Below, in pieces: positions 2,591-60,513 of a stretch of 64,000 nt of DNA. The translations under genes and the position numbers were made by a program. The notes beneath the pieces were generated by a model. It was not told where the DNA came from. It was given only the letters and a program-made list of their open reading frames with translations, and ran no database searches. Every line of letters begins with the position of its first letter. Positions within the stretch are counted from its first letter, which is position 1. Origin of the DNA: Cetorhinus maximus (taxonomy: Eukaryota); assembly GCF_964194155.1 (NCBI RefSeq), contig NC_135911.1, forward strand, positions 8,742,001 to 8,806,000. The letters run 5' to 3'.

Positions 2591-2599
2591 TGAATGCAA

Positions 2600-5283: not shown

Positions 5284-5332
5284 ATGGCATTAATGGTTTG
5301 GATGTCGATGGCATACATTGCTCTTCTGTCTG
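5284..5332 (+). CDS. Exon 1, signal peptide MALMVWMSMAYIALLS
   Basis: Hydrophobic 16 aa after ATG, phase-1 donor G|gtgagt matching the phase-1 V exon. Confidence 0.7.
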
Positions 5333-8300
5333 GTGAGTTTACAAACTTGTCACGCCATTTGGTGTTTGAGGTTTTTGAAAAAAAAAGTGCTTCTACTTCT
5401 TATGTCCTACTTGAAAATATTGAAAAAGAACTATTTTTAAAAAAAGTTGCCTTATGTGATGTAGGCTGGCAATGTCGGCGTTTACCCACCCATCTCTAAT
5501 TGTGCTTGAACTGCTGCAGTCCATGTGGTGTAGGTGCACCCACAGTGCTGTTAGGGAGGGAGTTCCAGGATTTTGACCCAGTGACAGTGAAGGAACGGCC
5601 GACATATTTCCAAGTCAGGATGGTGAGTGGTTTGGAGGGGAAGTTCCAGGTGGAGGCGATGTTCCCGTGCACCTGTCCCTGTCCTTCGATGTGGCAGAGG
5701 TCCTGGGTTTGCAAGGCGCTGTCTTGTTAAGTTGCTGCAGTGTCCTGCTGGCACTGTGCAGTGGCGGAGGGAGTGGATGTTGAAGGTGGTGGATGGGGCA
5801 CCAACCCAGTGGGCTGCTTTGTCCTGGATGGTGTCGAGTTTCCTGAGTATTGTTTGGAGACACATCCATTCAGGCAAGTGGGCATCAGACCCCTAACTGG
5901 TGTCTAGTAGATAGAGGATAGGCTTTGAAGAGTCAGGAGGTGAGTTAATCGCAGCCAGAATTCCCAGCCTCTGCCTTGCTCTTGTAGCCACAGTGTTTAT
6001 ATGGCTGACACAGCTTAGTTTCTAGCCAATGATAACCCCCAAGATGTTGATAGCGGGGGATTCAGCGATATAATTGTGTTGAACAACAAGGGGATATTGT
6101 TAGATTCCCTCTTGTTGGAGATGCCCATTGCCTGGATCTTCTGTGATGCCAACCTTACTTTGCCCCTGATCAGTCCAAGCCTGAAGGTTGGCTAAGTCCT
6201 TCTGCAGGCAGGTACAAAGTGTATCAGTATCTGAGGAGTTTCAAATGGCGCTGAACATTGTGCAATCATCAATGGACATCGTTACTTATAATACCTATAC
6301 ATGCATATTTTATATATATATATATTATATGAGTATAAATGAATATAAGAATAGGAGTAGGTCATTCAGTCCCTTGAGTCTGTTCTAACAATTAATTAGA
6401 TCATTACTGTACTTGAATTTAATTTAGTCACCTTTGATCAAAACCCTTAAAATCTTTAGTTTTATTAATCATGGAGATTTAATCAGACACGGGGCCCACC
6501 GCTTTTTGCGGGAAAGAATTCCACGTGTCTGGTCCTGTTTTGTGCGAAAGGGCTTCCCGATTTCATTCCTGAGCTACTTAGTTCTCAAGTTGCCATTAAG
6601 TTCTCTTGACAGGAACCGCCCAGCCACTAGAGGGAAAAGCTTCCCCTTACCCACTCGATCAAATCCTTGCAACCAATTTCTACATTTCTGTGAATTCAAC
6701 TCCCCAGCTTCAGAATTCAATGAACTCAGAGTCAAGTTGAGGCAATCCGTCTTGTTAATTTAACCTGTGAAGGCTCTGTATTCCCCTGGTGAATGTGTGC
6801 TCCCTCTCCCCAACCATCCCCTACCACCCCCTCACCTCCCACCAACCCTCTCAAGGACAATATACGTGTGGTGTGCTGCACAGCACTGAATGTAATGAGG
6901 GGAGATCTTATTGAAGTGTATAAGATCCAAGAGGCCTTGATAGGGTCGATACTGCGGGGGGGATGTTTTCCCTCCTGCTGGAATCTAGAACGAGGGGAGA
7001 CAGTGTTTCAGAGTAAGGGGTCTCCCATTTAAGACGGAGGTGAGGAGGAATCTCTTCTCTCAGTGGGGATCGTTCGTCTGTGGAATTCTCTTCCCCAGAG
7101 AGCAGTGGAGGCCGGGTCACCGAACATATTCAAGGCTGAGTTAGACAGATTTTTGATCGACAAGGGAGTCGAGGGTTACGGGGGGAGGACAGGAAAGTGG
7201 AGTTCAGGCCATAATCAGATCGGCCATGATCTTATTGAATGATGGAGCAAACTCGATGGGCCAAATGGCCTACTCCTGCTCCTATTTCTTCTGATTTTAT
7301 CAGATATAGAACCCATAAAGAACCCACATATAACAGCAACAAAAACAACGCTGGTCTGGTTCTGATGAAAGGTCACCTCGATCTGAACGGTTAACTGTGT
7401 TTCTAGCCGCAGATGCTGCCTGATCTGCTGAGTATTTCCGGCATTTTTTTTCTGTTTTCATTTCAGCTTTTCTGCACACCTGCAGCGTTTTGCTTTTGCA
7501 TTGACTGAATGGTACCAGAGCTGAGGGACTGCTGTTATGTGGAGAGACTGGAGAAGCTAGGCTTGCACTCCTTCAAGCAGAGGAGGTGAAGGGGAGATTT
7601 AATAGAGGCGTTGAAAACCTTGCAGGGCTTTAATAAGGAGACAGTGGTGGAATGGTATTGTCACTGGTCTAGTAATGTCAAGACCCAGGTTAATGTTCTG
7701 GGAATGTGGGTTCAGCCCCCACCAGCAGTAACTGGTGGAATTTAAATCCAATTAATAAAAATCGACAATTGAAAGTTAGCCTCAGTTATGGTGACCATGT
7801 CAACTCTCACTGACTGTCGTAAAAAGCCATCTGGTTCACTAGTGACCTTCAGGGATGGAAATTGACTGTCCTTGCCTGGTCTACATGTGACTCCAGACGC
7901 ATAGCAATGTGGTTGGCTCTTAACTGCCCTCTGATATGGCCTAGAAAGCCGGGCAGCTAGGGGTGGGCAAGCAATGCTGGCCTTGCCAGTGACACCCACA
8001 CCCCATGACAGAAAAACAATGAGGAGAAATTTCTTCCTGAGGTAGAACAGTCAGGAACCAAAGGCTCCTTAGACAGCACCGTCCAAACCCATGAGCACTA
8101 CCATCTAGATGGACAAGGGCCGCAGACACATGGGAACACCACCACCTGGAAGTTCCCCTCCAAGCCACGCACCATCCTGACTTGGAAATATATCGGCCGT
8201 TCCTTCACTGTCACTGGGTCAAAATCCTGGAACTCCCTTCTTAACAGCGCTGTGGGTGTACCTACACCACATGGACTGCAGCAGTTCTAGTAGACTGCCC

Positions 8301-11300
8301 ACCACCACCTTCTCAAGGGCAACGAGGGATGGTAATAAATGCTGGCCGAGCTAGCGAAGCCCACATCCTGTGAATGAATATCAACAAATAAAGGGGCTTG
8401 AGGAAGCATTTTTTTTTTAACACAGCGAGTTGTTGTGACCTGGAAGGCGCTGCCTGAAAGGGTGGTGGAAGCAGATTCAATAGGAATTTTCAAAAGGGGG
8501 AATTGGATAAATACTTGAAGTGGGGAGACTACAGGGATATAGGTAAGCAGCAGGAATGTGGGAAATTGAATAATGCAAGTCCTATATACAAAACCGACTA
8601 CACCGTAAAAGACCTTCATTAACTATTAGGGACCTCCTGAGGTTGCGAGAGACCAAACGACCTAGGAGCAGAAATAGGCCATTTGGCCCATCGAGTCTGC
8701 TCCACTGTTCAATGAGATCATGGCTGATCCGATAATCCTCAACTCCACTTTCCTGCCTTATCCCCATAACCCTTGATTCCCTTACTGATGAAAAATCTGT
8801 CTATCTCAGCCTTGAATATATTTAACGACCCAGCCTCTACAGCCCTCTGCGGTAAAGAACTCCAGAGATTAACTACCCTCTGAGAGAAGAAATTCCTCCT
8901 CATCTCTGTCTTAAATGGGCGACCCCTTACTCTGAGGTTATACCCTCTGGTTCTAGACTTTCCCATAAAGGGAAACAACCTCTCAGCATCTACCCTGTCA
9001 AGCCACCTAAGAATCTTATATGTTTCAATAAAGTCGCTTTTCATTCTTCTAAACTCCAATGAGTACAGGCCCAACCTACTCAACCTCTCCTCATAACAAA
9101 ATCCCTCCATCCCCGGGATCAACCTCATGAACCTTCTCAGGACTTCCTCCAAAGCCAGTTTATCTTTCCTTAGATAAGGAAACCAAAACTGTTCACAGTA
9201 TTCTAGATGTCGTCTAACTTGTGCCTTGCAGTTTTAGCAAGACTTTCCTATTTTTATACTCCATTCCCTTAGAGGCCCAACTATTTCTTTAATGACTTAT
9301 CACTGCATTGTAAATTCCATAATAACTCAAGGTTGTTACATTATGTAATACAGCATACATTCTTCCGTATTCAAATCTTCATACCAATTTCTATTTTGAC
9401 AATGGCAGATCAGCATTTTGATGCATTGGCACATATCTAGCCAAGAGTTAACAATACTGAAGGGAGATGAACTTATCAAACAGAAAATATTGCCATAGTT
9501 TTAGGCTAAGGGCTGGTAGATTTAAATCAGAGATGAGGAGGAATTACTTTTCTCAAAGGGTCGTGAATCTGGGGAGTTCACTACCTCAGAGTCCAGTGGA
9601 TGCCGGGACGCTGAATAAATTTCAGGAGGAGATAGACAGATTTTTAATTAGTAACGGGTTGAAAGGTTATGGGGAGAAATTGGAGTTGAGGCCAAAATGA
9701 GGTCAGCCATGATCGTATTGAATGGCGGGGCAGGCTCGAGGGGCTGAATTGCCTGCTCCTGCTCCTAGTTCTTATGTTCGTCCTTCGATTCCTTTAGTTT
9801 AAGAGGTTGGCCAATTTTGGAAGGTCTGGTGACAGGTAAAAATGTGCCTTGGACTATGAAGCTATTGGGCGTTATCACATCAGCCGCTTAGTTGCAATGA
9901 AGTAAATGGAACTTGAGATCACATTGGAAATACACCGGGTGACCGATGCTATATATCCCGCTATTTTTCCATAGAGCCTCCTAACGCTCCACTGAGTCCG
10001 GGTATAGCCTGCAGGTCACATACATTGGGTTCACCACATTGGGATTTTTTTTGACCCATTCGTGGGATGTGGGCATCGCTGGCTAGGCCGGTATTAATTG
10101 CCCATCCCGAATTGGCCTTGTTCAAAGGGCATTTAAGAACCAATCACGTTGCTTGTGGGTCTGGAGACACATGTAGACCTGGCCAGGTAAGGACGGTAGA
10201 TTTCCTTCCCTAAAGGACATTAGTGAACGAGATGGGTTTTTACAACAATCGACAATGGTCTTCATCAGACTTCTAACTGCGGATTTTTATTGAAATCAAA
10301 TTCCATTGTCTGACATGGTGGGACTTGAACACTGGTCCCCAGAGAATTACCCTGGGTCTCTGGATTACTAGTCCAGCTGCAGTGTCAACTTCTGACCAAC
10401 AGTAAAACTCCCTCTTCAGCCGCACTCTATGCCCCAGGTTACGCCTCCCACTCGCACAGGCCAACTGCAAAGCGACAGACACTGACGGCTCTTACTGACT
10501 GGGTGAACGAGTCAGACACAGTTTCCAATTCTGGGAATGCCTCAGTGATGAATGGGTAATATCGCCAGGCTTTAGTCACTGCTGCCCGTCTACCTGCAGT
10601 CCATCGAGGGTCTCAGGGTCTTTAGGCAGCTCGGTTTTCTGCGTGTTGCTACATTTCGATCCAGCCCTGCATCTCCCTCAGAAGCTGGAAATCTGACCAT
10701 TTCCTTTAGTCCTCCCCACCCCCCACACCCCCTCCCCCAACACAACCAACACCCATCGCCAGGCAATTCTTGTGAGGGATGTTGACTTCTTCCACCACAT
10801 GTAGGGTATAAGTACAAGCTGCACCTTACTGAGGACAAGCATGGTTTGAATGGAAAGCCATCGCCTTACTTCTTATATTCCTTCCAGTCCCCCATTACCT
10901 TCTTCCCTCTTTTCTCAACTTTTTACCTCGGCCCTCTCTCTCTCTCTCCCTTTCCATAACATCTTCCACTATCTGTCCTCATTCGCTTGTTTTCCTGCTG
11001 TATTTTCCATAGTTTCCCTCCACTGTGTCTGAGGATTGCCCTGCACATTACCATCACCAGGTTCACTTTCCAGGCCTAGGAGGGTGGCCTCCCATCTTCA
11101 ACCAGTCCCCCAAACTCCGCCTTCAGCCAAACACTTGCCCCAGGTTACAGTTCACAGAACTTTAACGGCACAGAAGGAGGTCATTCAGCCCATCGTGTCT
11201 ACATAAAGTCAGGATGGTGAGTGACTTGGAGGGGAACTTCCAGGTGGTGGTGTTCCCATCTATCTGCTGCCCTCGTCCTTCTAGATGGTAGCAGTCGTGG

Positions 11301-14300
11301 GTTTGAAAGGCGCTGTCGAAGGAGCCTTGGTGAATTCCTGCAGCGCACCTTGTAGATGGTACACACACTGCTGCTACTGTGCGTCGGTGGTGGAGGGAGT
11401 GAATGTTTGTGGATGGGGTGCCAATCAAGCGAGGCTGTTTTGTCCTGGACGGTGTCAAGCTTCTTGAGTGTTGTGGGAACTGCATTCATCCAGGTAAGTG
11501 GACAGTATTCCATCACACTCCTGACTTGTGCCTTGTAGATCGTGGACAGGCTTTGGGGAGTCAGGAGGTGAGCTACTTGTAGCAAGATTCCTAACCTCTG
11601 ACCAGCTCTTGTAGCCACAGTATTTATATGGCTAGTCCAGTTCAGTTTCTGGTCAATGGTAACACCAGGATGTTGATAGTGGGGGATTCAGTGATGGTAA
11701 TGCCTTTGAACATCAAGGGGAGGTGGCTGGATTCTTTCTTGTTGGAGATGGTCATTGCCTGACACTTGTGAAGCACGAATGTTACTTGCCACTTGTCAGC
11801 CCGAACCTGGATATTGTCCAGGTCTTGCTGCATTTGGACATGGACTGCTCCGGTATCTGAGGAGTCTTATGCAAAAGCCAAAAATATTAATGAAAGCGAA
11901 ATCACCCAAGGAAAAATGAGTTCTTTATTTAGCATATGAAAAGCAACATCGGAACAGGAGGAGGCCATTCAGCCCCTCGATCATGCGCCGCCATTCAGTT
12001 GCTCTGCTTGACATTCAGTTCTGCTGGTGCGAATGCAGCTGAATATCGGGCCGAGCGGAGAATGGGCGAGCCAGGGAGCAGATTTCTCCCCCCTCCCCGG
12101 ACGGAGCCTTGTGGGTAAGCTGTCGGATAGTTGAAGCTGCATTTTCTTACTCCTCAGATATGCCTGTTGAGGATTTAATGTTCCTTCAGAGCCTCTGATG
12201 CGGATTGAGGAGAAATCAGCTTCCAATGTGTTTCCTAACCCCGCCAATTATTGTTGTTCCTGCAGCTTCAACCAGTAACCACGTTACAGCTGTGACCCTT
12301 ACCGCTCTTGTTGGGACTGAGGTACTGCTTCCATGCCAGATGACACAAAACAGCACCATTTTCACACAGCTCGAATGGAAAAAGGGCCCTGAGAATAAAA
12401 AGTTCGCAGTGTATCATCATAAATTCGGGATAACAATCTCAGGTGAACGGTACTCCAGTCGGGTCGTTTTCAGAAACCATTCACGGCTGGATGGATCAAT
12501 TCTATTGAAGGCTCTGGAGATGGAGGATCAGGGGATGTATACGTGCAGCGTCACTTTATTCCCCCAGGGAATAACTGAGAAAGTAATGAATCTAACGATA
12601 TTAGGTGTGTATTCTACATGGAGCATTGTTCATGTGAAGATTCATTTGTGGGGAAATGTGATGTTCATGTGGAGAGGGGGGAGGGGGCTGAATTTTGGGT
12701 TGTGCATCCGGGTGTAAACTTAATACCCCTGCAATGATCATAAAAACTGTTGTTGTCTAATTCTAACACTTTAACCTAGTCACATTCTAGCTCCGATTCA
12801 TTATTTTATCATAGAGCTATTACTGAGATATTTAGTGTTTGTTTAACAGTTGCAAGTGAAGCTTTTATTTATAGGAAGGTTGGGAGTGTTACATCCAGAC
12901 GAGTAAAGTTTATCATATTCGTCTTCTCCCATTATTGATAGCCACATTCTGCAAAGATATCAGAGCCATTGACGACTCTCAGCAATCAATCTCTACCAAT
13001 TAATCTCTAACAGGTACAGACAAGAGGCAAGAGAAATCCCCATCCCCAGCGCTGGAGAACTTTGGGAAGCAGATCTACACCACAAGCATGTTGCACTGAT
13101 CCCGCGTCACTTCACACACTCTGTCAGATACACTACCCCTCCCTGTATTCTTCACCCTACTGCAGCTCTTTGACGCTCTCTCCCACTTCCTCGCCGTCCA
13201 CAATCGATCCCCCATCACTCACTCTCATGGTCGATTCATAGATCCACTTCTCTGAGTCCTGGTCTGGCCTGCAGGTCACAGGCATTGGTTTCACCGTCCT
13301 GGGCTTCAGTGCCACCTCTCACCCTCCAGCATGGTTCCAACACTCTCCCTTCAGCCGCACACTAGGCCCCCAAATTGCCCCTCCCGGTGGCACAAGCCCG
13401 TCCTTGTGGCACTTGCTGATTGGGTGATCAAGTGCCAATGATACAGTTTCGATCATGGGCATTTTTCTCAGTCCTGAATCTGGAACATCGCCAGCTTTTT
13501 GTCTGCCATTGCCGCAAAGACACCCCCTTTCCCCCCCACCCCCACCCCCCTAAAGATGGGGGCAGGGCCCAGAGCCAAGCCAGTTTCTCACACGTTGCTG
13601 CATTTCCACCCACCTGCCCAACCCTCTCGAAACCTAGCACTCCGACCATTTCCATTGGTCCTTCCGCACCCAGCACCCCCCCCAACAACACCCGTCGCCA
13701 GTCCCATCTAGGAAGACCCATCCCTTTGGCACCATCTGTAATGCATAAGCACAAGTTGGATCTGACTGAGAGCAATAACGTGGCTGAATTGAGACCAATC
13801 GCTTTGCTTCTTATATTCCTGCTCATTCCTTCCATTCCCCCATTGCCTTCATCCCTCACTTTCTTACCTGGGTCCCCTCTTTGCCTGTAACAACATCCAT
13901 TATGCAGTTGGGCCATTTGCTGGAGACATGTAAATATTGACAGGATCTGGTTTCTGGTTTTTTTTTGCTCCGGATTAATTGCAAGCTGCTGACATGGTTG
14001 AAACAGACGTTGAGTTAATTTCTGGTTTATCTCTCCAAGCAATTCCCAATAACAGGGCGATCCCGGTTCCCGCACGGACTGCTAATTCAGAAGTGCCAGT
14101 GGCAAATTGTACTTCAGCCAACGGAAACCCAGCAGCCGAGATCACGTGGATTTCCGGTTCCCCTGGAAACTATACAACAACCCTGATTGAAAACAGCAAT
14201 GGGACAAAAACTGTTATCAGCCTGTACAAGAGGGCACCCAGTGACTATGATGATGGTCAAACGGTGACATGTGTTATCTCCCACCCAGCATCAAGCAGCA

Positions 14301-17300
14301 CAGATTATTACACGATAACATTATCGATCCTCTGTAAGTTCCGTATACAAAGACGATTAATTCCAATAGTCGCTTGGTAGGACAGAACTTGAGTATTGCA
14401 GAAAAAAGAGACACGTTGAAGTTTTTCACCTTGCACTCATCAGGTATTCGCAAGAATACCGATATAATGGGGAAAACAACAATTTATACTGCATGTGAAG
14501 AGAGTGTTGGTTGGTTGGCAAGCGGACTCTGATTGGGCTCTGTGTATTAATATATGTAGCTTCCTGTACACACAAACACACACACACGTTGTTTTCCCTT
14601 TATTTTGGTGTTCTTGCAAAGTGTCCTGTTGAGTGGAAGACAAAAAGCGTCCACGTGTCTCTTTTTTCAGCGATACACAAATAATGTAATCCAATTCAAA
14701 GCGCGCTGCAGTTGAGTAATAAGACAGCCAGCTCCTCCCCTAACTAGAGAAGTGTTAAACTTCCCTCACTGGCTGAATTGACATTTTCTGGGTATCCGCG
14801 ACTCCAGGATTGCTGGGCCGGTTCAATGTGACCGGTTGTGGTTGATTCGCCAGCTGCCCATTTGCAAACCCCAGCCTCACATATTAAATAAGTCAAAAGC
14901 GATGATTTTCTTTCGGGAGGTTAGAGTTAAGGGAGGTTGCATCATTTTCTGGGCGTAAAGACTAGTTTGCAGCAATTCGGGGTCACTTCAACTTTGGATG
15001 GTTAGGCCCAGTGGGGTGTTTCCCAATGTGGAAGTTGCTCTATCAATGCAGCCGGATGCCGCAGTTCAGAATGAACCTCGGCCTGAATCATGGGTTATCG
15101 GAGCCTGCAGCGCCTCTCAAGCGACATGTTAATCTGTGGTGGTTTTCCTTTGAGGTTGTGGTTGCTCTACACAAGACATGTGATTCACCTAACACGAAAG
15201 GCAAAGACTGTTTTAAATATGTGGATGGGCCAGAGCTACTAACCTGCCATTTCCTGCCACTCTGGCCTGTTGTGCAAAAGCACCAATGTGGACTCTCTGC
15301 TGTGTTGGATGTACTGACCACATGAACACAATAATTCCCTCTGTAGATCCACCAGAAGTGACCATAACAGGCTATGATGGCAACTGGAGTGAAAACAGAG
15401 GGGATGTCACCCTCAATTGTGAGGCCAAAGCCAATCCCCCAGCAACAAATTACACTTGGCAATGGTAAATATGCGCTTCATTTATGAAGAATTGCATTGT
15501 GTATATTTTCAAAACTGTGTAGATCATGGATCGCTCAGATGCTTTCATACGGTTTGTGACCTGGTTGTTGAACTGGAAACAGGCTTCTCCGCACGGGTTT
15601 TGTTTACATGTCTCTGCTTTAAGGGAAACATTTGTGGAAAAAGCTGTAGTCACGCGAGGGTGTTTAACATGAACCTTCACTGACTGACTCTGGATGTATA
15701 TCTGTATATGTATATCACAGAATCTGTGACCCGTGGGCAGGTCGATACAGATTGGCAGAGCAGCGAGAGGCCATTTGCTGAACTAGTGTGGTAATAGGTG
15801 TTGCATACTTGAGATGCAGAAATGCCAACTGAATCCCAAATGAACACGACCAAACTTCCAATTTGATGCCTCGCTATTTGGGTTCCTGAAAAAATAAATT
15901 GCGTTAAAAACCTGGAGAGCCATTTGAAATGTGTCCCCTACAAAATACAACTGAACCAAAATAACCACTTGTATCTTGGGTGTAAATTTTTCTTTGGGTC
16001 AGTTAAGGACATGGTGGGCAGAGCGAACATCGCGATTCACCAGAAACAGCATTAAGAATGCGGAGAGAGAAGGAGAAAATGTAGTGTGTGTAAGATCATC
16101 ATGTATGCCATATTTATGAATGTGATGATGGGGGTAGTGCGGGGGTGGTGGGATTGAATGGCTTTAATATGGGGGTAAATGTTGACCACAATACAGGAGT
16201 ATGTGTAGAGCGGCCCAAGCAGCCCAGGTGGGAAAGAGCTGATATAACCAGCCCAGGGGAGAGGCCCCAAATTCAGGAGAACTTCAACAAACAGCGATGA
16301 GGGGTACAGTTGTATGATGTTCTGTACCAGAAACCTTCAGGATTATTTTCATTATGGGCGACTTTGGGAAACAGCAAAATGTAGGATTTTTGATAACTTG
16401 TTCATTATCACCATCTCTTGAGTGGGTTATTTGATATTGTCTAGTTTCTTCACTGGTTTTCTTCAATCCTGCACCATCCGCATCTCAGTGCTATCCACCC
16501 ATTCGGTTCTTCTTCTTCCTCTTCTCTTTTTACCTTCAATTCCTCCTTCAGCTGAGGCCAGGTCTTCGTTTCCGATCTGTGTACTTGCTCATCAATCTGT
16601 CTCCGCCTGTGCTTGGCAACCCTTTTGATTCCTGAACTTCTGCTCTTGACCTAAGCCACTCTTTGGCCTTTCTGTCCATCCAGCTGATTCTGAGCATCCT
16701 CTGCCAAACCCACATTTCAAAAACCCTAATCCCCCTCTCATCCTGTTTCCACAGAGTCCAAATCTCACATGCAATGGATGCAACACTCTACGCTGTTGAC
16801 CGTACCAGATATTTTCTTTTCCACCTTTACGCTGATGCTTTTGGATTTACAGGGATGACGTAAATCACTGGTCATGCCTCTTGCTGTAGCTAATCTACCT
16901 GGATTGCATTCTTGGGTATAACTTTGGTGTTTATCATCAAGTCAATGTACTTGAAATTGTCCCTCTATCTCGGTGCTTCCAATCTTGACTTTCCCATCGC
17001 TGTTTAGAGCCAGAACATTGGTCTTTAACTCATTTATCTCACGTATGTCATTCATGCCCTACTATACACCACGACTAACATCGCTTACCGTCCAGCGATA
17101 CAATCCGGTGGAGCATATCTGCTCTTTGGAGGCCAGAGCTAATATTCGTCACCTAGATTTAGTCACCAAGGCATTTCTTAAAATTGCATTGTTGGCTCTT
17201 CCAAGGTTACCAGAAGGAGTGGAGGCTAAAAATGCACGTGTATTCATAAAGAAAGTGAGCAATTTGATGAATGGGACCTGGATCTGTGAAGCTACCAACT

Positions 17301-20300
17301 CAATTGGGACAGGAAGAGGCAAACTGGAATTAATATTAAAACACTCCACTAAAGGTAGGTACATGTTAATAGAGCAATAGAAAGGGCCAAATTCCCTTTC
17401 ATTTTGTTAATGAAAGTGTAAGTGTTGGTGTTAAATAAATGGCTACACATGAAATTAGGTCATCGGGATGATGAGTTCACTTTGAGATCTATGGAAATCA
17501 TGGAGGACGCTATAAAAATGCAACTTCTTTATTTCAACGACGAAAGATCCTCAGACCCCAAATGCCGGCCATGTTTTCAGGACCCACCATTTGTCCATCT
17601 TTACCCTGAATCTTCTCGAGGTCCTGTTGCTTTATAAGCTCTGATAACCAGTGGCCAACGTGAAGATTTTTTAAAAATTCTTTCACGCGTTGTGGGTATC
17701 GCTGGCTGGGCCAGCATTTATTTCCCGCCTCTCATCATCCTTGAGAAGGCGGTGGTGAGCTGCCTTCTTGCACCGCTGCAGCCCCTGTGGTGTAGGTACA
17801 CCCACAGTGCTGTTAGGGAGGGAGTTCCAGGATTTTGACCCAATGACAGGGAAGGAACAGCTGATATATTTCCAAGTCAGGATGGTGAGTGGCTTGGAGG
17901 GGAACTTCCAGGTGGTGGTGTTCCCAGGTCCTTGTCCTTCTAGGTGGTAGACATGGTGGGTTTGGAAGGTGCTGTGTAAGGATCCTTGGCGAGTTGCTGC
18001 AGTGCATCTTGTAGATGGTACACACTGCTGTAACTGTGCGTCGGTGGTGGAGGGAATGAGTGTTTGTGGAACTGGTGCCATTCAACTGGGCTGCTTTGTC
18101 CTGGATGCTGTCGAGCTTCTTGAGTGTTGTGGGAGCTGCACTCATCCAGGCAAGCGGGGAGCATTCCATCACACTCCTGACTTGTGCCTTGTAGATGAAG
18201 TATATTAATTATATGTGAAGTTACTTTTCAAACAGCCTCTTGCATTTCCATAGGGCTAGAAAGGCAGATTTTTCTGCTCAGTTACCTGCAATTACAGAAT
18301 TGCTTGGGCTCCCCGAGTTCAGGGAATTTGGTTCATTTTGAGGACACATCTGAAGGATTTTAATGTATTCCCTCACACGAGGCAATGGAATACCATGAGC
18401 TATTTCCTGTTGATCATCCTGGCCTAATAATAAGGGCCATTGAAAAAGTAATTAATCAGCACATGAATCGGGATGTAATTGCATTTCCCTTGTGTTTTCC
18501 CTCCAACTATTTCCTCATTGAAGCTTCTTTCTTATTCTTCCACGGGATGTGGGCATGGCTGGCTGGGCCAGCTTTGATTTCCCAGCCCTAATTGGCCTTG
18601 AGAAGGTGATGCAAACAACACCCCCCACCAAAGCTGGTAATCAAAGAGGTGCGAGGGAGAGGTGCAATAATTACTGTCCACAATCAGTGTACTCGACTTA
18701 CCACCGAGCAGATCCCGTCAGTTCCAATTCCCGTTTTCAATTACATTGTCCTTATTTCTTTCAAAGCCAATTCCGTAAATGATACTGCTGTATTTGTCAC
18801 AGTTTCTCCCCCCCCACCCCGCCACTGTGTCCGAGTATTGCCCTGCACATTACAATCATCGGCTTCATTTTCTAGGTCTGCAGGGTCGCCTTCCATCTCC
18901 AACCAGCCCCAAAATCTCTGTCTTCAGCCAAACAGTTGCCCCAGTTCACAGAATCACAGCATTTTGATGGCGCAGAAGGAGGCCATTCAGCCCATCATGT
19001 CTGCACCGACTCCCCCTCTACAGTTCGCACCGGTCGCCTCAGGCCAACAACAGCGGTGCAGATCCTCACCCTTCAATGTTGACCGGAATATCAGACCTCA
19101 TGCCTTCTGCATCAGGAGGATTTCTTGGTCCCAGCATTGAAATGCCGCCTCTATTTTGTTAATTACTGCTCCATATCCTGCCCCTCCCCACCACAACCCC
19201 CCCCACCAAACATAGTCCACCATTGGTGGCGGACCCTTCAGTCAACTTCAGCCAAGCTGTCCTTGCAACACACCATTACACATTCCTCAGAAGCTCCTTG
19301 CTTTGCAAATCCGTTTTGGCCTCTCTCCTCATCCCCACATGCAGCTTGCGAAGGCTCTTAGCTACTTGCCACGTGAAATGCACGAGAGAAAGTAGTGTCC
19401 CCCCCATTAAAAAAAAAGTGCCCCTATTGCCCTCCCCCACCCCAACTAAAAAGAGATTGTTCCTGCTTTTCCTTCGTTTCATCCCCAAGCCCCTTTCCTT
19501 CCATCTTATTCTTCCTTCCTTACTTCCACCCACTTTCTTGCAGCGATGACCGAGTGAAGGCCTATGGGGAGGCAGCTGGAAGTGATTGGGCTCAGGACCT
19601 CGGTTTCACAAGCGCCTGCTGGTTGCCCAGGGTTGTGATGGTTTTACCGCGTCCACCACCGCCCAATATGTCAGGCCTAACTCAATTGTTCCCATCACAG
19701 CGTCTGATACGGGAAATGAGAACTGCCCGTCCCATTGGCTAACAAAAATTTATCACAGAAGCAAGGTTATTGATAGGAAGCTCAGAAAGAAGATGTATTT
19801 TTTAAATTACTAATTTGTACCCATTGGTTTACTCCCTATTCGTTTCTCGACGATCATTTCGCAGATCATGGGAATGGAAAGCTCATCATCCCATGTGTGA
19901 CATTGGGAGTAGTGGTGTTTGCCCTGTCCACGTTTCTCATTATTCTATTCATCAGGCGAAAACGCAGATCAGCAGGTAAATCATCAGAAAATGAAAGGTG
20001 AAACCAAATACCTACACGACTACAGATATTTCAACTCGGCGCTAGTGTTCATTAGTTCCACCGTAACATCATTTAACTTTCTTAGGTTACTCTGGTTTCA
20101 CTTTCCCGCCCGCTTGCTCTCTCATTCAATTCAATTCCCGAGGATCAGCTATTTGCTAATAATCTACCACAAGCCAGCAAACTATGTAGTTTACACTTCC
20201 TCTCAGCCTGCTCCCTATATAGACTCTACTCTCTTCTCCCAGTATCTTCATCGCCATTGCTCCTTCACTTATGATGCATCCTTCCATGCTACTGCTCCTG

Positions 20301-26863: not shown

Positions 26864-26989
26864 CTACTTCTGTTTGAGAATGCCATACACAATGCCTTCT
26901 GAACCAGCATTATCTTCACTGGGGCACTCTTTGTGGTATGTCCTTTGCTGGGGCATGTTCAGGGAGGAATACACGATCTCACGATGTCA
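26864..26989 (-). pseudogene. Pseudogene terminal exon retaining two ITIMs (*HREIVYSSL...GIVYGILKQK*)
   Basis: Aligns with 49710-49844; its first codon is TGA where the intact copy has TGT. Confidence 0.82.
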
Positions 26990-40040: not shown

Positions 40041-40450
40041 ATCTACCTGTCTGTCATGCATCTTTATTACGTATGATCATTTTTCAACGAATCTAGTTAT
40101 ATATCTATTATCCACGTATTAACATGCATGTGTCCATTCAACTATCTGTCGATGCTTTACATCTCAATAGACAGGTGAGTTCTTTAAAATGGATACTGAA
40201 AGGATTATGGTTTGTGGGTTAAAATAAGCCATGAATTGGAATACTGTCATGATTCCCCAAACTAGGAAAGGAGAGTCTTTCCATTTGGCTATTTGGCAGC
40301 ATACAGGTCTAATTGAAGGTTGAAAACTTTCAATGTTCCCTAGGCATTGACTGGGATGCCTGTGTGGAGTGAAGAGCATGATTTCATACAACGGCATATT
40401 GGGGATACCCGAAACCATTGGTCATAGTTCGAATTTAAATGCCAAGTTAC

Positions 40451-40530
40451 ATTGCAGTTGTTAGTTATTCCAATTTACAAGTGTGGATATGGCCAACAAC
40501 AGTCCCAGGAACAAATCTAGACACACAGTG
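40451..40530 (-). pseudogene. Pseudogene TM exon remnant (CLDLFLGLLLAISTLVNWNN*)
   Basis: Aligns with 52305-52424. The N-terminal part and the acceptor AG are deleted, and CAA>TAA occurs at 40461-40463; donor gtaact is retained. Confidence 0.75.
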
Positions 40531-47899: not shown

Positions 47900-48030
47900 T
47901 GGTGGTCAAACCAGCAAGCAGCCTCTAGTAGCCAGGGAACTTAGACAATATGATTTTGAAGTAGCCAGTCTTAGTGAAGCATGGCCAGTTGGGGTAGGTC
48001 AGTTGAATAAAAAGGAACAGCATACACCTT
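47900..48030 (+). mobile_element. RTE-clade LINE endonuclease N-terminal remnant
   Basis: LVARELRQYDFEVASLSEAW...GQL resembles the RTE APE start (ARELARYNIDIAALSETR). Confidence 0.55.
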
Positions 48031-49709: not shown

Positions 49710-49844
49710 CTATGTCTGCTTGACGATGCCATACACAATGCCGTCTGGCTCAATATTATCTTCACTGGCACATTTCCTCTTCGTGGTATCTCCTACTTTC
49801 TGCTGCTGTATGTAGAGCGACGCATACACCACCTCACGTTGACA
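49710..49844 (-). CDS. Exon 6, double-ITIM terminal exon
   Basis: Acceptor tttgtttcaacag|; CQREVVYASLYIQQQKVGDTTKRKCASEDNIEPDGIVYGIVKQT*. Confidence 0.87.
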   Translation of the reverse strand, partial: CQREVVYASLYIQQQKVGDTTKRKCASEDNIEPDGIVYGIVKQT

Positions 49845-52800
49845 CTGTTGAAACAAAGCATGTTTCGCCGCATTGAATTCTTTTCAGTGACAGATACTAC
49901 GGCTTCTCTCAAATTGACCCCCCCATGCATTACGGAAGAATACAGGCATGTCTGCAGGTAAGAGCAGCATGGCTATTCCGCTTTGACACGCCTAAAACGA
50001 ACCTCTGCAAGATATATAGAACGCTAGTCAGGCCACAGCTGGAGTACTGTGTGCAGTTTTAGTCGCCACATTATAGGAAGGATGTGATTGCACTGGAGGG
50101 GGTGCAGAGGAGATTGACCAGGATGTTACCTGGGCTGGAGCGTTTCATCTATGAAGAAAGACTGGATAGGCTGGGGTTGTTTCCCTTAGAGCAGAGAAGG
50201 CTGAGGAGGGACCTGATAGAGGTGTACAAAATTATGAGGGGCATAGATTGGGCAGATAGGAAGAAACATTTCCCCTTTGTGGAGGGGTCAATAACTGGGG
50301 GGGGGGGAGGGGGGGTGGGCATCGATTTAAGGTAAGGGGCAGGAGGTTTAGAGGGGATTTGAGGATTTTTTTTTCACCCAGAGGGTGGTTGGAATCTGGA
50401 ACACACTGCCTGAGGGAATGGGAGACGCAGGAACCCTCACAACATTGAAGAGGTATTTAGATGAGCTCTTGAAACGCCGTAGCATACAGGGCTATAGGCC
50501 AAGTGCTGGAAAATGGGATTAGAATAGACGGGCGTTTGGTGGCCGGAGCGGAAACGACGGGCCGAAGGGCCTGTTTCTGTGCTGCCTAACTCTATGACTG
50601 TAAGTTTTTTTTTTAAAAATGGAAGAGAGGCTCTCATTCAAAACCACAGGAGGTGCCAAAGCGTCTTCCAATGAATGATACACTTCCAAGTATTGTCATG
50701 GGTGCAGTGTGGGAAAAGCTGCAGCCAATCCATACACAGCAAACAGGCACGTGATAAGGTCAGAGAGTCATTTCCTTATTGTGACCTGGATTGAGGGCTA
50801 TATGTTAGCTGGGACACAGGAGACAGCGTCCTTGCTCGCTAAAGGCATATTGGCAATGGGTTCTTTTGCAACCACGTAAGAGAACAGAAGTGACCTCGGT
50901 TTAATGTCAAAAGCAGGCCACTGTTTTAATCCTCTATACCCAGAACGGTAATAAACCATGCCGTGCTTTCCCGTTGCGATCAAAGGCTTTTTGAATGACC
51001 TACCTCGTCTGTTTCCTTCCTGGAGGCCTCGCTTTCCGGGGCTAGACCGAGAGGGAAAGAATATCAAGAGGGTGGTTAGTCACTGGCGAATCCACGAGGT
51101 CAAGGTGCTCCCCTTCTGAATATAAATCTGTGCACACACGAACACGGCTTCCACTCTCTCACCGTCCATCCAGTCCACCCACTAATCCATCTGCCTAGGA
51201 TAGACCTCCCTACCCGCAGCACTTAGCAACGTGATGTGCGTGACAATTCATTAACTTTCTCAGGATAATTTTACCTCTGTGGTTCTAACCATCTAACAGA
51301 CAACATTGTTATATCTAGCTAGCTAGCAAGGCTTTTAGCAATTTTTTATCTGTTTAACTAGTTAGATAAAGTTTTGAATAAGAGCCGAGAACCAACGTCC
51401 GTCCGTCCGTCCGTCCGTCCATCCATCCATCTATCCGTCTATCTATNNNNNNNNNNNNNNNNNNNNNNNNNNNNNNNNNNNNNNNNNNNNNNNNNNNNNN
51501 NNNNNNNNNNNNNNNNNNNNNNNNNNNNNNNNNNNNNNNNNNNNNNNNNNNNNNNNNNNNNNNNNNNNNNNNNNNNNNNNNNNNNNNNNNNNNNNNNNNN
51601 NNNNNNNNNNNNNNNNNNNNNNNNNNNNNNNNNNNNNNNNNNNNNNNNNNNNNNNNNNNNNNNNNNNNNNNNNNNNNNNNNNNNNNNNNNNNNNNNNNNN
51701 NNNNNNNNNNNNNNNNNNNNNNNNNNNNNNNNNNNNNNNNNNNNNNNNNNNNNNNNNNNNNNNNNNNNNNNNNNNNNNNNNNNNNNNNNNNNNNNNNNNN
51801 NNNNNNNNNNNNNNNNNNNNNNNNNNNNNNNNNNNNNNNNNCGTCCGTCCGTCCATCCATCAATTAGCATTTATCAAATCTATTTAAGTATCCATCGACC
51901 ATATACCCGCCTTCCTGTCTGTCAGTCGACCCTGCTATGTTAGGATTGTGTCTGGGGTGGTGTGTGAAGGGGCTGTACTGTGTCAGAAGCACAATGTGAC
52001 ATCTTATGTACAGACAGGTATTATCAATCATTGTGGAAAATAGTCACTTTTATCCTGATTTACATATCAATAGAAATGATTTCTCTAAGATGCAAAACGT
52101 GAGCAGTGTGTTTTGCAGGTAGAAGTGTGTCAGAAACGGGAATTATGTCATTATTCACCAAACTAGGAAAGGAAAACGTCATTTAGCAGATTACAGTCCA
52201 ATGAGTGTGTGCGCTGTCAGTGCAGAGTTCAGCGGCTGTGTTGGGGAGACTGCCAGTCATTGGTGCAAGCCGAGGTCATAGTGCATTTGTAAAGGTCAAG
52301 TTACCTTTCAGCTGTTGGCTCTTCCGACTTAGAAAGGTGCGTGTTGCCAACAACATTCCCAGCAGCAAAATAAGGCTCATCACCCCAAGGATGATATATT
52401 TCCTGCACCTTACCGGCATAGCATCTGTGAGAGGAAACATATTTCCAACAGGTGAAAGGAAGTTCATTGCAGGATCCCTGTAGCGTCACTGTTGCTCTTA
52501 CTGTAACATTGCTTGTCATCATTATTCTCATCGACTTGCCCCACACCATGGGAGAAATATATAGTGCACCTTGTGGATAATCTTGCATCGTTAAAGTTAT
52601 ATATGGCACTCCTACTGTTTAGTTCACCATTTCTATAAGTTGTTTCACAGTTCGCTTCACTCTGAACAGAATAGATCCCGCCCTCAAACTTTCAACTACT
52701 TCATCTTTTTGCAGAGCTGTAAGAGTTTCATCAATACTGCCACAATTTCCCATTTTTACTTCCCTTTTGCTTCTAAATAGATTAACTGGGTTGAATTGGA

Positions 52801-55800: not shown

Positions 55801-58800
55801 CAGGTATGGAGGGATTTTCTTATGAGAAGAGGTTGAGTAGGTTGGGCCTGTACTCATTGGAGTTTAGAAGAATGAGTGGCGACCTTATTGAAACATATAA
55901 GATTCTGAGGGGGCTTGACAGGGTAAATGCTGAGAGGTTGTTTTCCCTTGTGGGAGAGTCTAGGACCAGAGGGCATAATCTCAGAGTAAGGGGTCACCCA
56001 TTTAAGACAGAGATGAAGAGGAATTTCTTCTCTCAGAAGGTAGTCAATCTGTGAAATTCTTTACTGCAGAGGGCTGTAGAGACTGGGTCATTAAGTATAT
56101 TCAAGGCTGAGGTAGATAGATTTTTCATCAGTAAGGGAATCAAAGGTTATGGGGGAAAAGCCAGGAAAATGGAGTTGAGAATTATCAGATCAGCCAGACT
56201 CGATGGGCTGAATGGCCTACTTCTGCCCCTATGTTTTATGGTATTATAGTCTAAATGAAGAGATTATTTGGATTTTAAAAGGATCTTAGTCTGTTTCCAA
56301 CTAGCCAGATAAGCAAGGCTAAGGAGTGTGTTTATTTTTCCCAAAGGCACTGACAATATTGGCAACATGAAAGTTTTATATTATGAGGAAGAAACAATTT
56401 CAAAGACATATGGAGCAATAGAATTTACGTATTAAAAAGATAGAAACATATATGAAGGAGGATGAAAGGCTTTGTGGGAGAAGGCCATGTAAAATCTAAC
56501 AGGAGTTTGTGAAATAGCCTTAATGATGCCTCCAACATTTTGCATAAGTCTGGCAAACAATGAAACTGAATTTGGGGGAAACCCATTTGGAATTCCACTG
56601 TCAAGTGGGTATTGTGTTAATTTGCTAGTTCTGTTTTAAATCTAAAATCTTTTTTGGATTGCTTCCTTAAAGGGTGTGTGTAATTGGGAGTCAAGTCAAA
56701 TAGGAATTTTAGGAGTTATTATACTCATAAGTAATTGTAGTCTTATGTTTGTACTTGAAGTCTTTTATTTTGTTGATAAATGTTTTAATTTAATTTTTTA
56801 AATCTCTCAAGGTCTTGGTGGACTCATTACTTCTTGATTCAGTGCAAACATTTTCTTGTAATGAATACTTTTATAAATAAATTTCAAAACCAATTTGATA
56901 GGGCGACCAGGCTTCCCTTGTAGATGTGGTCCACCTGGCACACATCATCTGCTATGTCATAACATTATGGCCTGATTTAGTTGCTCCCATTCGGGTAGAG
57001 TTGAACACACACATTCACAATTGTGTCAGCAAGGTACACTTGTCCTCATCCGACTGAGATAGCCTGACCTTTTTAAAACATTGTAACCCTTTTTTAAAAG
57101 ACAATTCTTCCATGAGGTGTGAGTGTTGCTGGAAATACCAGTGCAGGACTGAGGGAGTGATGCATGTTGATGAGAGGTTAAACTGAAGGCCCATCATCTA
57201 GCCTGGCTGGGTATAAAAGGCCCCATGGAACTAATCTGAAGAAGATGGGGGCCCCCACCCCGAATTGCACTTGAGACGCTGGTGATGAGCCGCCTTCTTG
57301 AACCACTCCAGTCCTGCAGCCCTGGTTTTTTTAGTACGACTGAGTGCCCATTTCAGAGGGCAGTTAAGAGTCAACCACACTGCTGTGGATCTGAAGTCAC
57401 ATCTAGGCCAGACCAGGTAAGGACAGCAGCAAAACCAGATAGATTTTCACCACAATCCATGATCGTTTCATGGCTATCATTACTAATACGACTTTTAGTG
57501 CCAGATTTAGGAGTCTGATTTAATTAATGAATTTAATTTCAATTCCATCAGCTGGCATTTAAACCTCTGACCACACAGCCATCAGCCTGGGCCCTTGGTT
57601 TTACCAGTTCAGTGATACTACCACTGTCACCCTGCATCGTGATGTCGAGGGTTTCTTTTTTTAACCTACCTGAAATGTTCAGTTTTGTTTTGCTCGAAAA
57701 GATTCCCTTGGGGAACGTTGTCCAGGAACAGGTGTAAATGCCCGAGTCGCTTTTGCTGGAGTTGCTTATCATGAGCGTGGCGTCCTGTTGAGAAGGGTGC
57801 CTGAAATGGATTCGACTGGAGTTGGTCTCCCCCGGGTAACTTATTCCGTGCTGGGGATGATACACTGCCAGGTTTGCCTTCTTGGCGGGACTGCTCCAGG
57901 CGACACTCACCACATTCACACCTGGGTCGGAAATGGTGAGGGAACATGGAAGGATCACCACCTCTCCCTTATAGCCCGTCACGGAGAGCGATGTGTGTAC
58001 CCTCACTGCACAGTGAACTGGAAAGTAAATACACATTCAGCCAAAGGGGCAACATTTCTGCTGTTAGTTTGCACTTTCGATCTTTGGTCTTAACATTTGC
58101 GTTCTTTCCTTTACCCCCCCCAAACTATTTTTATTCATAAAGTTTGTAAAGCAGAGTTCAGATTTGACATTACATGAAAGTCAGCACATTCCATCAGGTG
58201 TCTCATTGCATTGGCCGTTACGGATTTTGACTGCAATGCACATTCACATGTCAGGTCAGACATGCTCCGCTTCTTGCAATCCGAGGGGTTTAACAAGGCT
58301 CCCAGTCCCTGGGTGCATGATGGCGGCGGGATGGGCCGAACAGCCTCCTTCTAGCGCTGTAAAATGTAATGATTTAGCTCCAGAGAGCACAATCCAATCC
58401 CACAGTGAGGGAAACCCACGCCTCTTTGAAGCCAGGGGACCATCTGCCAGCACTGAAAGGCTGCAGGGCTCTGCAGGATATTTATATTTCCCTCGAGGTC
58501 ACTTTCTGCTCTCTCTCTCTCTCTCTTTCTGCTGAATTAACTCCCGCAGCCTAAAATACTCTGCCTGCTAAATGCGGCCTCGAACAACGCGAGGCAATTG
58601 CTGAAGGAACTGTTGCTAATCCGGTTCTCGTTCCGCTGATAAGTAAAGCGAAGACTGTCACTCGCGGGAGAGGCAGCGCTCTTGTCTTAACCGCGAGGGA
58701 CCCGTTTGAGACCAGCGTTGCACTGCATTGCATCGAGGCGAGTCCCGCCAGGGCGCAGTTGTTAAATGCAAAGTGACTGTCCCAGTATTTATCTCCACCT

Positions 58801-60513
58801 CTCTCTCTCTCTCTCCCCTACCCTGTCCTTTGGAGCGAACCACATTGTGTCACTAAGGGGCTGGGACATGAACGTCCGGCACGAGAGAGACTCTCAAACC
58901 CAGCGCATGATTGAAAGGTCGGCATATTCTCTTCCATTGCAGCCCCCATTTCTCTGTGTGCCAGCAAAAGGAGCATCTGGAACTCTGCATCGCTCCCACG
59001 ACATGATATAAACGTTTCTAATCAGCCCAAAGCATCAGCTGCAATGGTTCGGCGACTTGGAGGAGGTTCCTGTCGATGACAGAGATGAATCGCCAGGGAC
59101 TAGAGAGAATTCAGCCTGCAAGTGCTCGGGGTATTTTCTTTTTTAATTCATTCATGGGGTGTGGCTAGGCCAGCATTTATTACCCATCCCTAACTGCCCT
59201 TGTTCAGAGGGCAGGTCAGAGTCAACCACATTGCTGTGGATCTGGAGTCACATGTAGGCCAGACCGGGTAAGGGCGGCAGATTTCCCCCCCTAAAGGACA
59301 TGCTCTGCCTGTGTGGTGTCGACTGAGGGATGATGTTGATGACTCACGGCCCACATCGCCTTCGATTTAGTGCCATGGGAGTTTTCAAACCCACCCAAGG
59401 GAACTGATGGGACTTCAGTCGAGCCTTTCAGCTCCCCATCCCCCATCTCCTCAGCACTGCATTGGAGTGTCAGCCTTGATTTTTGGGCTCAAGACTTGGA
59501 GTGGGAGTTGAACCCAGGACCTTGTACTCAGGCTAATACCTGAGCCCGGACTGGCCAAAATACATCAGGTTAATGAGCCAGGCTGTGTAGGGGCGTGGGA
59601 GCTTGTGGAGGGGAGGGGGCGAGGGAGGGGGAAGGTGATTTGAGGGGAGGGGGGCTGAGAGGCAAAGGGAGGAGGGGAGCTGGGGGACTGGGCGTGGTGG
59701 GTAACCTAACCCCTATGAGTGCAAAAGGACTAAACTGTTTACATAAATATCAATTTCATTCCTGACTACAATCACCGATTGACGGGCAGACAGACCAGGA
59801 GTGAGAGAAACTGACAAACAGAAACCTAAGCTAACAAAACGACACGTTAGTGCTTAACAGGCGGCACTGTCAGTGAATGAGCATAGGAATTAAGGATAGA
59901 AAATGTTACATTTCATTATTGTCAATAGCTTAACATTAATCATCGCCGGGAGAGTTAGAGAGTTCATTCATTATTGATATGAAGTGGGCCAACAGTATGT
60001 AGATATCTCTATNNNNNNNNNNNNNNNNNNNNNNNNNNNNNNNNNNNNNNNNNNNNNNNNNNNNNNNNNNNNNNNNNNNNNNNNNNNNNNNNNNNNNNNN
60101 NNNNNNNNNNNNNNNNNNNNNNNNNNNNNNNNNNNNNNNNNNNNNNNNNNNNNNNNNNNNNNNNNNNNNNNNNNNNNNNNNNNNNNNNNNNNNNNNNNNN
60201 NNNNNNNNNNNNNNNNNNNNNNNNNNNNNNNNNNNNNNNNNNNNNNNNNNNNNNNNNNTAGATAGATGGATGGACGGACCGATGGATGGATGGATGGACA
60301 GATGGATGGATGGATAAAAAAGAGATAGATGAAAGGATAGATAGATAACATGATAGATTAGAAGATAGACAAACAGACAGGTCGAGGGATAGAGAGATGT
60401 AGAGAAATAATAACTTAATTCTTTCCAGGACGAATTTTGAACTTACCATAAGCCGTGGTGATGAGAATGAGCCACACACTGGAGAGTAAAAACTGATTAA
60501 TTAATGGTTTCAT
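49710..60513 (-). CDS. Single-IgV nectin-family inhibitory receptor (TIGIT/PVRIG-like architecture) with two ITIMs; 6 coding exons, 726 nt, 241 aa
   Basis: Exons 60513-60447, 58017-57670, 52424-52305, 51041-51004, 49951-49934 and 49844-49710 are GT-AG bounded and in frame (phases 1,1,1,0,0). V domain has AVYHPQHG (AX6G) and TFPKG; tail has VVYASL and IVYGIV. Confidence 0.86.
49934..49951 (-). CDS. Exon 5, 18-nt micro-exon TCLYSS (possibly skippable)
   Basis: ctgcag| ... |gtaatg; the same 18-nt length and splice sites are conserved in the paralog at 27075-27092. Confidence 0.55.
50020..50600 (+). mobile_element. CR1 LINE 3' fragment in an intron of the ITIM gene
   Basis: ALEGVQRRLTRMLPGLE...RLGLFPLEQRRLRRDLIEVYKIM. 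Confidence 0.85.
51004..51041 (-). CDS. Exon 4, cytoplasmic mini-exon APESEASRKETDE
   Basis: Acceptor tctttccctctcggtctag|, donor GAG|gtaggt; 38 nt converts phase 1 to phase 0 as required. Confidence 0.78.
52305..52424 (-). CDS. Exon 3, transmembrane segment
   Basis: Acceptor tttcctctcacag|, donor |gtaact; DAMPVRCRKYIILGVMSLILLLGMLLATRTFLSRKSQQLK. Confidence 0.88.
54201..55100. mobile_element. Solo-LTR-like element
   Basis: TG...CA bounded; similar along its length to 56270-56964. Confidence 0.5.
55566..56964. mobile_element. Solo-LTR-like element with nested CR1 (about 55735-56250)
   Basis: TG...CA termini, 4-bp TSD ttat; internal CR1 ORF fragment 55722-56054. Confidence 0.6.
57670..58017 (-). 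CDS. Exon 2, nectin-type IgV domain (348 nt)
   Basis: Acceptor tactttccag|, donor |gtaggt; VILPCSL...VSVAW...AVYHPQHG...DATLMI...DSGIYTCSWTTFPKG. Confidence 0.93.
60447..60513 (-). CDS. Exon 1, signal peptide MKPLINQFLLSSVWLILITTAY
   Basis: Hydrophobic leader with phase-1 donor G|gtaagt. Confidence 0.8.

Follow-up and report, generated by a model that had tools for sequence, protein, structure and literature searches.

The window analyzed here is a 64,000-nucleotide stretch of the basking shark genome (Cetorhinus maximus, C34:8742001-8806000, identity established by a 100% RefSeq match), and it contains gene A, a nectin/PVR-type receptor gene with an activating-type tail, together with the first exon of its inverted twin, gene A', which has an inhibitory-type tail and otherwise lies to the left of the window. 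Judged from sequence, A and A' have the attributes of a paired receptor: near-identical ectodomains, opposite tail motifs, linkage in opposite orientation (in this genome), gene conversion and a diversified binding face. It is probable, in our view, that they form a paired receptor and that repeated conversion has kept the two alike; A' would damp down the leukocyte and A would switch it on, A probably being a decoy for pathogens able to bind A'. An earlier note on this DNA had instead paired A with gene B, a convergent gene of the window that encodes a single V domain and two immunoreceptor tyrosine-based inhibition motifs (ITIMs); the right partner of A is A', with 95-96% ectodomain identity. 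What that note had said of the two window genes individually held: both splice into open frames, A being backed by RefSeq and B by counterparts in Heterodontus and Heptranchias, and both have a nectin/PVR-type IgV domain with lock and key motifs (AVYHHKFG and FPQG in A, AVYHPQHG and FPKG in B), for which nectin-1 was the best solved-structure (PDB) match.

Gene A, gene A' and the inverted block they share

Gene A (+ strand, 5284-23533) encodes a leader-V-C2-C2-transmembrane (TM)-tail protein of 396 aa, with GT-AG boundaries at 9/9 introns. It is identical to RefSeq XP_078389611.1 (P0001) except at exon 7, where the models differ by a tandem acceptor 6 nt downstream that other sharks' models use too, and at the last intron, which the RefSeq model reads through. 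The leader exon (5284..5332) is followed by the IgV exon (12266..12604), which differs from A' at five residues, the first C2 exon (14040..14333), the two halves of the second C2, split as in nectins (15347..15464 and 17206..17354), and a TM exon (19865..19975) whose helix has no charged residue. The first cytoplasmic exon (21498..21544, alternative acceptor 21492) contains YVNV, a GRB2-type YxN; the second (22668..22697) closes on the Y-M of the first YxxL and precedes a phase-0 intron; the third (22796..22839) supplies G-L, a 7-residue spacer and YNEL; and the terminal coding exon (23530..23533) holds the stop, the ...LQR end being shared with three other sharks' models. An AlphaFold model of the protein (mean predicted local distance difference test, pLDDT, 68) has three Ig domains plus a TM helix.

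The earlier note had read an ITAM (activation motif of the immunoreceptor tyrosine-based type) at the end of A. The pattern YMGL-x7-YNEL is present, spread over two mini-exons, but the definition used in the CEACAM papers includes an acidic amino acid at positions -1 to -3 relative to the first tyrosine (PMC2832619; this and the other papers are cited from the accessible part of their text), and because that residue is missing, the basking shark motif is strictly ITAM-like. Among the A-type models of eight species, YxxL/I-x6-8-YxxL/I was strict in 7/8 (the first motif of the zebra shark is YxxV), an acid at -4/-5 of the first tyrosine was found in 8/8 and a YxN tail motif in 7/8.

Gene A' (- strand) corresponds to RefSeq XP_078389658.1 (P0002), a V-C2-C2-TM protein whose tail carries IVYATL (an ITIM) and TVYADV (a switch motif, ITSM), with all its splice sites intact. 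Its leader exon (67..118) points away from gene A and its other exons are to the left of the window: the V exon at C34:8732789-8732451, the C2 exons at C34:8731002-8730709, 8729692-8729576 and 8727817-8727668, the TM exon at C34:8726231-8726130 and the tail exons at C34:8725205-8725176 and 8718819-8718703. The two genes stand head to head, with start codons 5166 bp apart.

A homogenised block of 7.6 kb (11206..18777, +) is an inverted repeat of window positions -8159..-15765 in A' (95.4% over 7624 columns); it spans all four ectodomain exons, introns included, and the leaders, TM exons and tails fall outside it. A and A' were 95-96% identical in V and 95% in C2-C2, and the assembly contains two copies only of the block and a single copy of the ITAM exons. 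The right end of the block is the A' TM-exon acceptor, and the corresponding copy in gene A reads AA, not AG, so that conversion tracts seem to extend up to, and not to be kept past, the TM exon that sets the tail. Non-coding divergence was 1.3% and 1.6% in the mid introns, 4.3% and 5.6% on the right and 6.5% on the left (partly common repeat), and one run of 563 bp was identical. The five non-coding segments differed in their divergence (chi-square = 70, df = 4, p = 2e-14), a pattern that fits overlapping tracts of differing age, unlike one duplication. A crossover within the inverted block would flip promoters and leaders (window 119-5283 with both long first introns); the leaders track tail type, so such flips were seemingly not kept.

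The motifs A-x6-G and (Y/F)P-x-G in the first IgV domain (as defined in the accessible part of PMC4749091) were found in A, A' and B. In 50 shuffles the search pattern for IgV was absent from each, against two observed, and the lock motif, also observed twice, had a shuffle mean of 0.04. The (V/I)(S/T)Q motif was partial only (FTQ in A, LTQ in A', VSV in B), and the C-terminal PDZ (afadin) motif was absent from A (LQR), A' (KQS) and B (KQT), while pvrl2l, a nectin-2-type gene of this genome, ends in AVYV. In a V tree built without TIGIT, CD96, CD226 or PVRIG sequences, A/A' formed their own shark clade (100/100). The RefSeq label 'nectin-1-like' was rejected as orthology, the nectin-1 of this genome (C2:225.08 Mb) grouping with teleost nectin-1a. 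By this placement, A/A' are orthologous to none of nectin-1, nectin-2/pvrl2l, nectin-3 or PVR.

Ectodomains, tails and binding face across sharks

Family models were obtained from 12 shark species, with full tails in 11; ITAM-type tails were present in eight species, ITIM-type tails in nine and both in six. Within species, ITAM and ITIM copies were 95, 97, 91 and 96% identical in V (the four species having both V) and 95, 95, 98, 95 and 98% in C2-C2 (five species), compared with 41-84% and 43-88%, respectively, between species, whereas their tails shared only 19-39%. Trees of ectodomains and tails were built with isoforms, partial and tail-less models omitted (P0003, P0005, P0010-12, P0014, P0021, P0023, P0027, P0029, P0030, P0033, P0037, P0039 and P0042), as well as two teleost nectin-1 rows. 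The ectodomain tree recovered the own-species pair with starred support in 6/6 species having both types, and an ITAM clade was rejected (approximately unbiased test, AU, p = 1.5e-152). In the tail tree the ITAM tails formed a single clade (100/100), and the pairing of the basking shark A and A' tails was rejected (p = 2e-63). The leaders, compared by eye, also track tail type across sharks.

Ectodomains grouping by species and tails by type, in eight shark orders' worth of models, bear, on these alignments, the mark of gene conversion that has recurred in lineages from sawshark to lamniforms. The pair predates the sawshark/galeomorph split, because both groups carry it. Non-hexanchiform sharks and rays have been dated back to a common ancestor 256 million years ago (212-312), with most between-order splits in the Jurassic (preprint 10.64898/2026.02.13.705779, accessible part); with these dates the age of the A/A' pair would be about 200 million years or more.

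Copy number varies, with several Mustelus and Heterodontus models and V-only ITAM models in the white shark (P0004, P0009 and P0011, annotated at two loci or more); in one of these the key is altered to SPPG and the F-G segment is replaced. Ray or chimaera A/A' were not among the matches, although ray gene C (the nectin-like neighbour of A') and ray pvrl2l were; these searches were not exhaustive. Among the 150 best profile matches, 69 new proteins (<=760 aa) were checked, 44 of them with a TM, and the ITAM pattern was found in two (teleost and lamprey), neither in the A/A' clade. The lamprey protein is one of two 'nectin-3-like' models (P0080 and P0165) whose first 237 aa are 70% identical; one has the ITAM pattern and the other ITIM/ITSM-like motifs, possibly an independent jawless-fish pair. 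The teleost models, from Metynnis (P0098/P0182), are hypothetical and join a pvrl2l-type ectodomain to repeated ITAM patterns, either an independent gain or a model fusion.

In A/A' of 11 sharks, entropy was 1.39 bits in the C-C'' and F-G segments of V, 0.87 in the rest of V and 1.02 in the C2 domains. In the same four species, the face exceeded the rest of V in A/A' (1.00 vs 0.66 bits, p = 0.008), whereas in gene C the order was reversed (0.44 vs 0.66 bits); in three species the values were 0.22 vs 0.46 for pvrl2l and 0.59 vs 0.54 bits for gene B. Four of the five V differences between A and A' fall on the GFCC'C'' face. At the protein level, then, this face is the most variable part of A/A' and the most conserved part of gene C and pvrl2l. 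Nectin-1, nectin-2 and PVR use the same face of their first domain when they serve as virus receptors (PMC2777377, accessible part).

Mechanism, known systems and competing explanations

In the mechanism that we propose, non-allelic conversion between the inverted copies would re-copy the binding domain whenever the two drift apart, and selection would remove any tract running into the TM exon of the other gene. A microbe that entered through A', or exploited it to send an inhibitory SHP-1/2 signal, would also engage A, and A would signal via Syk/ZAP70 and GRB2, leading to uptake or killing. Recruitment of Syk/ZAP70, GRB2 and SHP-1/2 is what the motif types lead one to expect, and is predicted here.

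The closest parallel is CEACAM1/CEACAM3 of mammals and Xenopus, which resemble A/A' in placing an ITIM+ITSM gene beside an oppositely oriented ITAM or ITAM-like twin, in the conversion of ligand-binding exons and in a variable CFG face, while the ITAM-bearing CEACAMs share with gene A four tail exons, a YxxL split at a phase-0 intron and a YxN motif (PMC2832619 and PMC5112662, accessible parts). In A/A', the place of the CEA N domain is taken by a nectin V-C2-C2 ectodomain that has the disulfide and the PVR motifs, and the tract takes in the whole ectodomain with introns, compared with mostly the N exon in CEACAM as described there; A/A' can be traced across sharks, whereas the CEACAM pairs are traced within one mammal or frog lineage, and it is the CEACAM pairs that are described there as pathogen receptor and decoy. 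An exploited inhibitor with a conversion-matched decoy appears the most likely explanation because the face, orientation, conversion and tail build match the CEACAM pairs, and because nectins and PVR are virus receptors. We offer tentatively, leaning slightly against it as a whole, a fuller version in which A' would be a shark 'PVR' with an ITIM, matched for some 200 million years or more by an ITAM decoy twin in an arms race of unusual length, the variable face would be the pathogen site and B would be a TIGIT-like counter-receptor acting via lock and key.

Two other systems share part of this arrangement. Siglec-16 signals through DAP12 via a charged TM residue. Gene A, in contrast, carries a motif in the tail itself and no charge in the TM; Siglec-11/Siglec-16 are lectins with primate-only depth, and are like A/A' in being an adjacent inhibitory/activating pair with repeated conversion in each lineage (PMC5701461, accessible part). 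Mammalian PVR/CD155 is like A' in its nectin-type V-C2-C2 structure, ITIM, lack of a PDZ tail, fast evolution and membership of a virus-receptor family; unlike A/A', it groups with nectin-2/pvrl2l, is placental-only as described and has no ITAM twin (PMC7286890, accessible part). The nectin evolution paper, as far as its accessible text goes, reports an ITIM in PVR alone and an ITAM in none. The literature searches yielded no account of an ITAM-bearing nectin-like pair in sharks; subscription papers and supplements lay outside this coverage, and shark genome supplements might list the genes. The accessible parts of PMC7286890, PMC13262535, PMC13278318 and PMC12065747 make no mention of the A/A' pair.

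Several observations weigh against a converted, pathogen-driven pair. The other sharks are known here as annotated proteins, and several of the models have no V or TM exons; in protein-model searches, the ITAM copy was not found in 3/11 full-tail species (Heterodontus, Heptranchias and S. canicula), nor the ITIM copy in 2/11 (Mustelus and C. punctatum). The ITIM clade of the tail tree is weak (83/27), the left edge of the homogenised block lies within a common repeat, which inflates divergence there, and the acidic residue of the activating motif is a shortcoming (at -1 to -3: absent in gene A, 2/8 species). As for the face, the entropy tests assume independent sites and species, the lock Tyr/Gly and key F-P-x-G are invariant across the 11 sharks, as would fit a retained host ligand, and twin differences show no clear excess on the face: of those found on it out of sample (17/26, p = 0.035), 11 come from one white-shark copy, with sawshark (4/9) and zebra shark (2/4) at expectation.

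A host ligand is at the center of one alternative, in which the same pair and the same conversion would tune a threshold of self-recognition towards B, pvrl2l or a TIGIT-like or CD96-like protein, with no pathogen role. Besides the invariant lock/key core, it can draw on the presence of candidate counter-receptors in the genome and on a predicted complex of the A and B V domains, which scored 0.71 vs 0.02 for the best of three controls and in which F115-P116 of A sits in the lock pocket of B (contacts agreeing between runs at >=96%, partner pLDDT >=89). The mark for such scores was reached by 51/78 solved complexes and 2/108 mismatched pairs (39/65 and 2/126 in eukaryotes). The lock-and-key binding of A to B suggested in the earlier note thus passed structure prediction, but the pass may stem from resemblance to nectin and TIGIT-PVR complexes already solved; it would show likeness, not binding, and the choice of family member is beyond its reach. 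A conserved ligand would poorly explain the positions around the lock/key core, at 1.03 bits in A/A' vs 0.15 in gene C and 0.11 in pvrl2l, and we regard this alternative as unlikely, if credible.

That A and B are themselves the activating and inhibitory members of a pair competing for one ligand is improbable. They have opposite motifs, a nectin-type V in both and a common cluster, B adjoins the ITIM gene in Heptranchias too, and a clade of A/A' with B was not rejected in the V tree (AU p = 0.36); however, the two V domains share 37/107 residues (35%), B being equally far from pvrl2l, gene C and a further ITIM gene of the contig (35-38%), they belong to separate old clades, have three Ig domains vs one and no common DNA block, the V nearest to B is that of a two-ITIM gene (C34:6.6 Mb, 96/86) and gene A already has a 95% twin. 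The CEACAM-like birth-and-death cluster on nectin domains that had been proposed therefore survives in its type of system and in some birth and death (the dead B copy and at least two V-only white-shark ITAM models), and falls in its pairing. A course without conversion, in which each lineage freshly duplicated ectodomain exons before an old tail by birth and death and exon shuffling, seems to us hardly more plausible than that A-B pair; variation in copy number (white shark, Mustelus and Heterodontus models) speaks for it, but at least six independent events would be needed, each keeping both old leaders and tails, and divergence in the single block is far from uniform. The 95% identity within an inverted repeat might even suggest an assembly artefact, with A' a false haplotype duplication, an idea to which we give almost no weight, as the leaders, TM exons and tails differ, each with orthologs in other sharks, and the twin pattern in the annotations of five other species refutes it. 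DNA contigs from three runs of one sample had A'-type letters at, e.g., 15388, 15392, 15461 and 15463, and read depth within the block was about double in one run of that sample with no doubling in another; the sample is possibly the assembly source, and neither result was counted as support.

If A/A' are such a converted pair, the strategy of paired receptors and conversion would extend to the nectin scaffold and to cartilaginous fish, where innate and natural killer (NK)-like receptors are poorly mapped. In mammals, nectin/PVR proteins act in adhesion, as checkpoint ligands and as virus receptors, hence the relevance, and none of them is known to carry an ITAM. A/A' would provide two specific shark leukocyte markers, a testable decoy hypothesis, a candidate pathogen footprint and a natural example of concerted evolution that has gone on for long and breaks off sharply at the TM exon. 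Genes of the A, A' and B types are hidden in databases as 'nectin-1-like', 'tactile-like' and 'myelin P0-like'.

Gene B, its dead copy and the surrounding genome

Gene B (- strand, 60513-49710) encodes a leader-V-TM-tail protein of 235 aa, from a leader exon (60447..60513), a nectin-type IgV exon (57670..58017), a TM exon (52305..52424), a cytoplasmic mini-exon (51004..51041) and a last exon (49710..49844) in which the two ITIMs described earlier, VVYASL and IVYGIV, were found; the double-ITIM pattern alone is weak against shuffles (3 observed, mean 0.38, max 3). A full-length counterpart in Heterodontus (P0007) was 65% identical in V and retained both tyrosine motifs, and the same architecture was present in the front part of a fused Heptranchias model (P0015). 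In the V tree gene B had its own shark clade (100/99), sister (96/86) to a gene 2.1 Mb off (C34:6604488-6620500, +, L021-L023) with a nectin-type V exon, a TM exon and a two-ITIM exon. The V domain of B matched nectin-1/2 at E 1e-17 vs 1e-4 for TIGIT, and PVRIG was not among the 60 best matches listed; atlas look-ups of the B ortholog and of the flank V returned only generic V-set neighbours. Like TIGIT and PVRIG/CD112R, B combines a single IgV, a TM, two tail tyrosines and lock and key motifs; unlike them, it has two ITIM-type motifs, no YxN and a V nearer to nectin-1/2 (PMC4749091, accessible part). Gene B is thus, by these comparisons, an older, separate single-V inhibitory-type receptor with the shape of TIGIT/PVRIG, which, like TIGIT with PVR, may bind A/A' or a different nectin.

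Between the two genes lies the dead ITIM paralog that had been reported, a copy of B (- strand). Its last exon (26864..26989) opens with a TGA in place of the TGT of B, ahead of two ITIM-like motifs, and its TM exon remnant (40420..40564) has lost the acceptor (AG now TG) and 45 bp by deletion. For a V exon or a leader, nothing scored above shuffled sequences. Inside this copy, a single-exon rhodopsin-type G-protein-coupled receptor (GPCR) frame (32669-33640, -; 7tm_1 E 4e-17) with a stop just past the last helix and a poor N-terminus is probably a pseudogene.

Along the contig the genes follow one another as C(-), A'(-), A(+), dead B(-) and B(-). Gene C (C34:8702855-8690964, -, L004-L006) is a nectin-like V-C2-C2-TM gene with a strongly conserved binding face, whose tail tyrosines were lost in the basking shark, Heterodontus, epaulette shark and sawfish and kept in Heptranchias (both) and skates (one). 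A Pfam scan of 133 open reading frames (132 of 443 filtered flank frames and one window frame) found no marker genes, and returned four reverse-transcriptase pieces, four Ig exons and one GPCR. Synteny gave a divided answer: pvrl2l (10.06 Mb, 1.3 Mb from A') and an ApoA-IV/ApoE-type exon (10.30 Mb) are on C34, and NECTIN2 and APOE are linked in humans, a likeness that is suggestive only, whereas CLPTM1 is on C33, Bin3 on C35/C40 and ERCC1, UFC1 and TPI1 on small unplaced contigs; a 7q22 marker family was looked for and was not on C34.

Two near-identical V exons at C16:46.46 and 46.59 Mb (L035:4375-4716 and L036:4647-4988) are candidate shark TIGIT duplicates; the one tested had TIGIT as its best solved-structure match (E 5e-10), and their tails were not found. 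A V exon beside nectin-3 best matched nectin-3 and PVR, and sits at what we take to be the expected CD96 position. About 54 kb past gene B, a cysteine-less V exon (L018:26-394) is followed by C2 and TM exons (C34:8860151 and 8864970, +), a set that the tools did not identify and that we presume to be CEACAM/HEPACAM-like in build. To the left of gene C, a divergent V-set exon (L008:2372-2839, +) had no clear solved-structure relative. Finally, about 100 kb at C31:14.56-14.66 Mb contain very long frames (<=4671 aa) with weak repeated apolipoprotein-profile matches, a giant tandem-repeat coding region.

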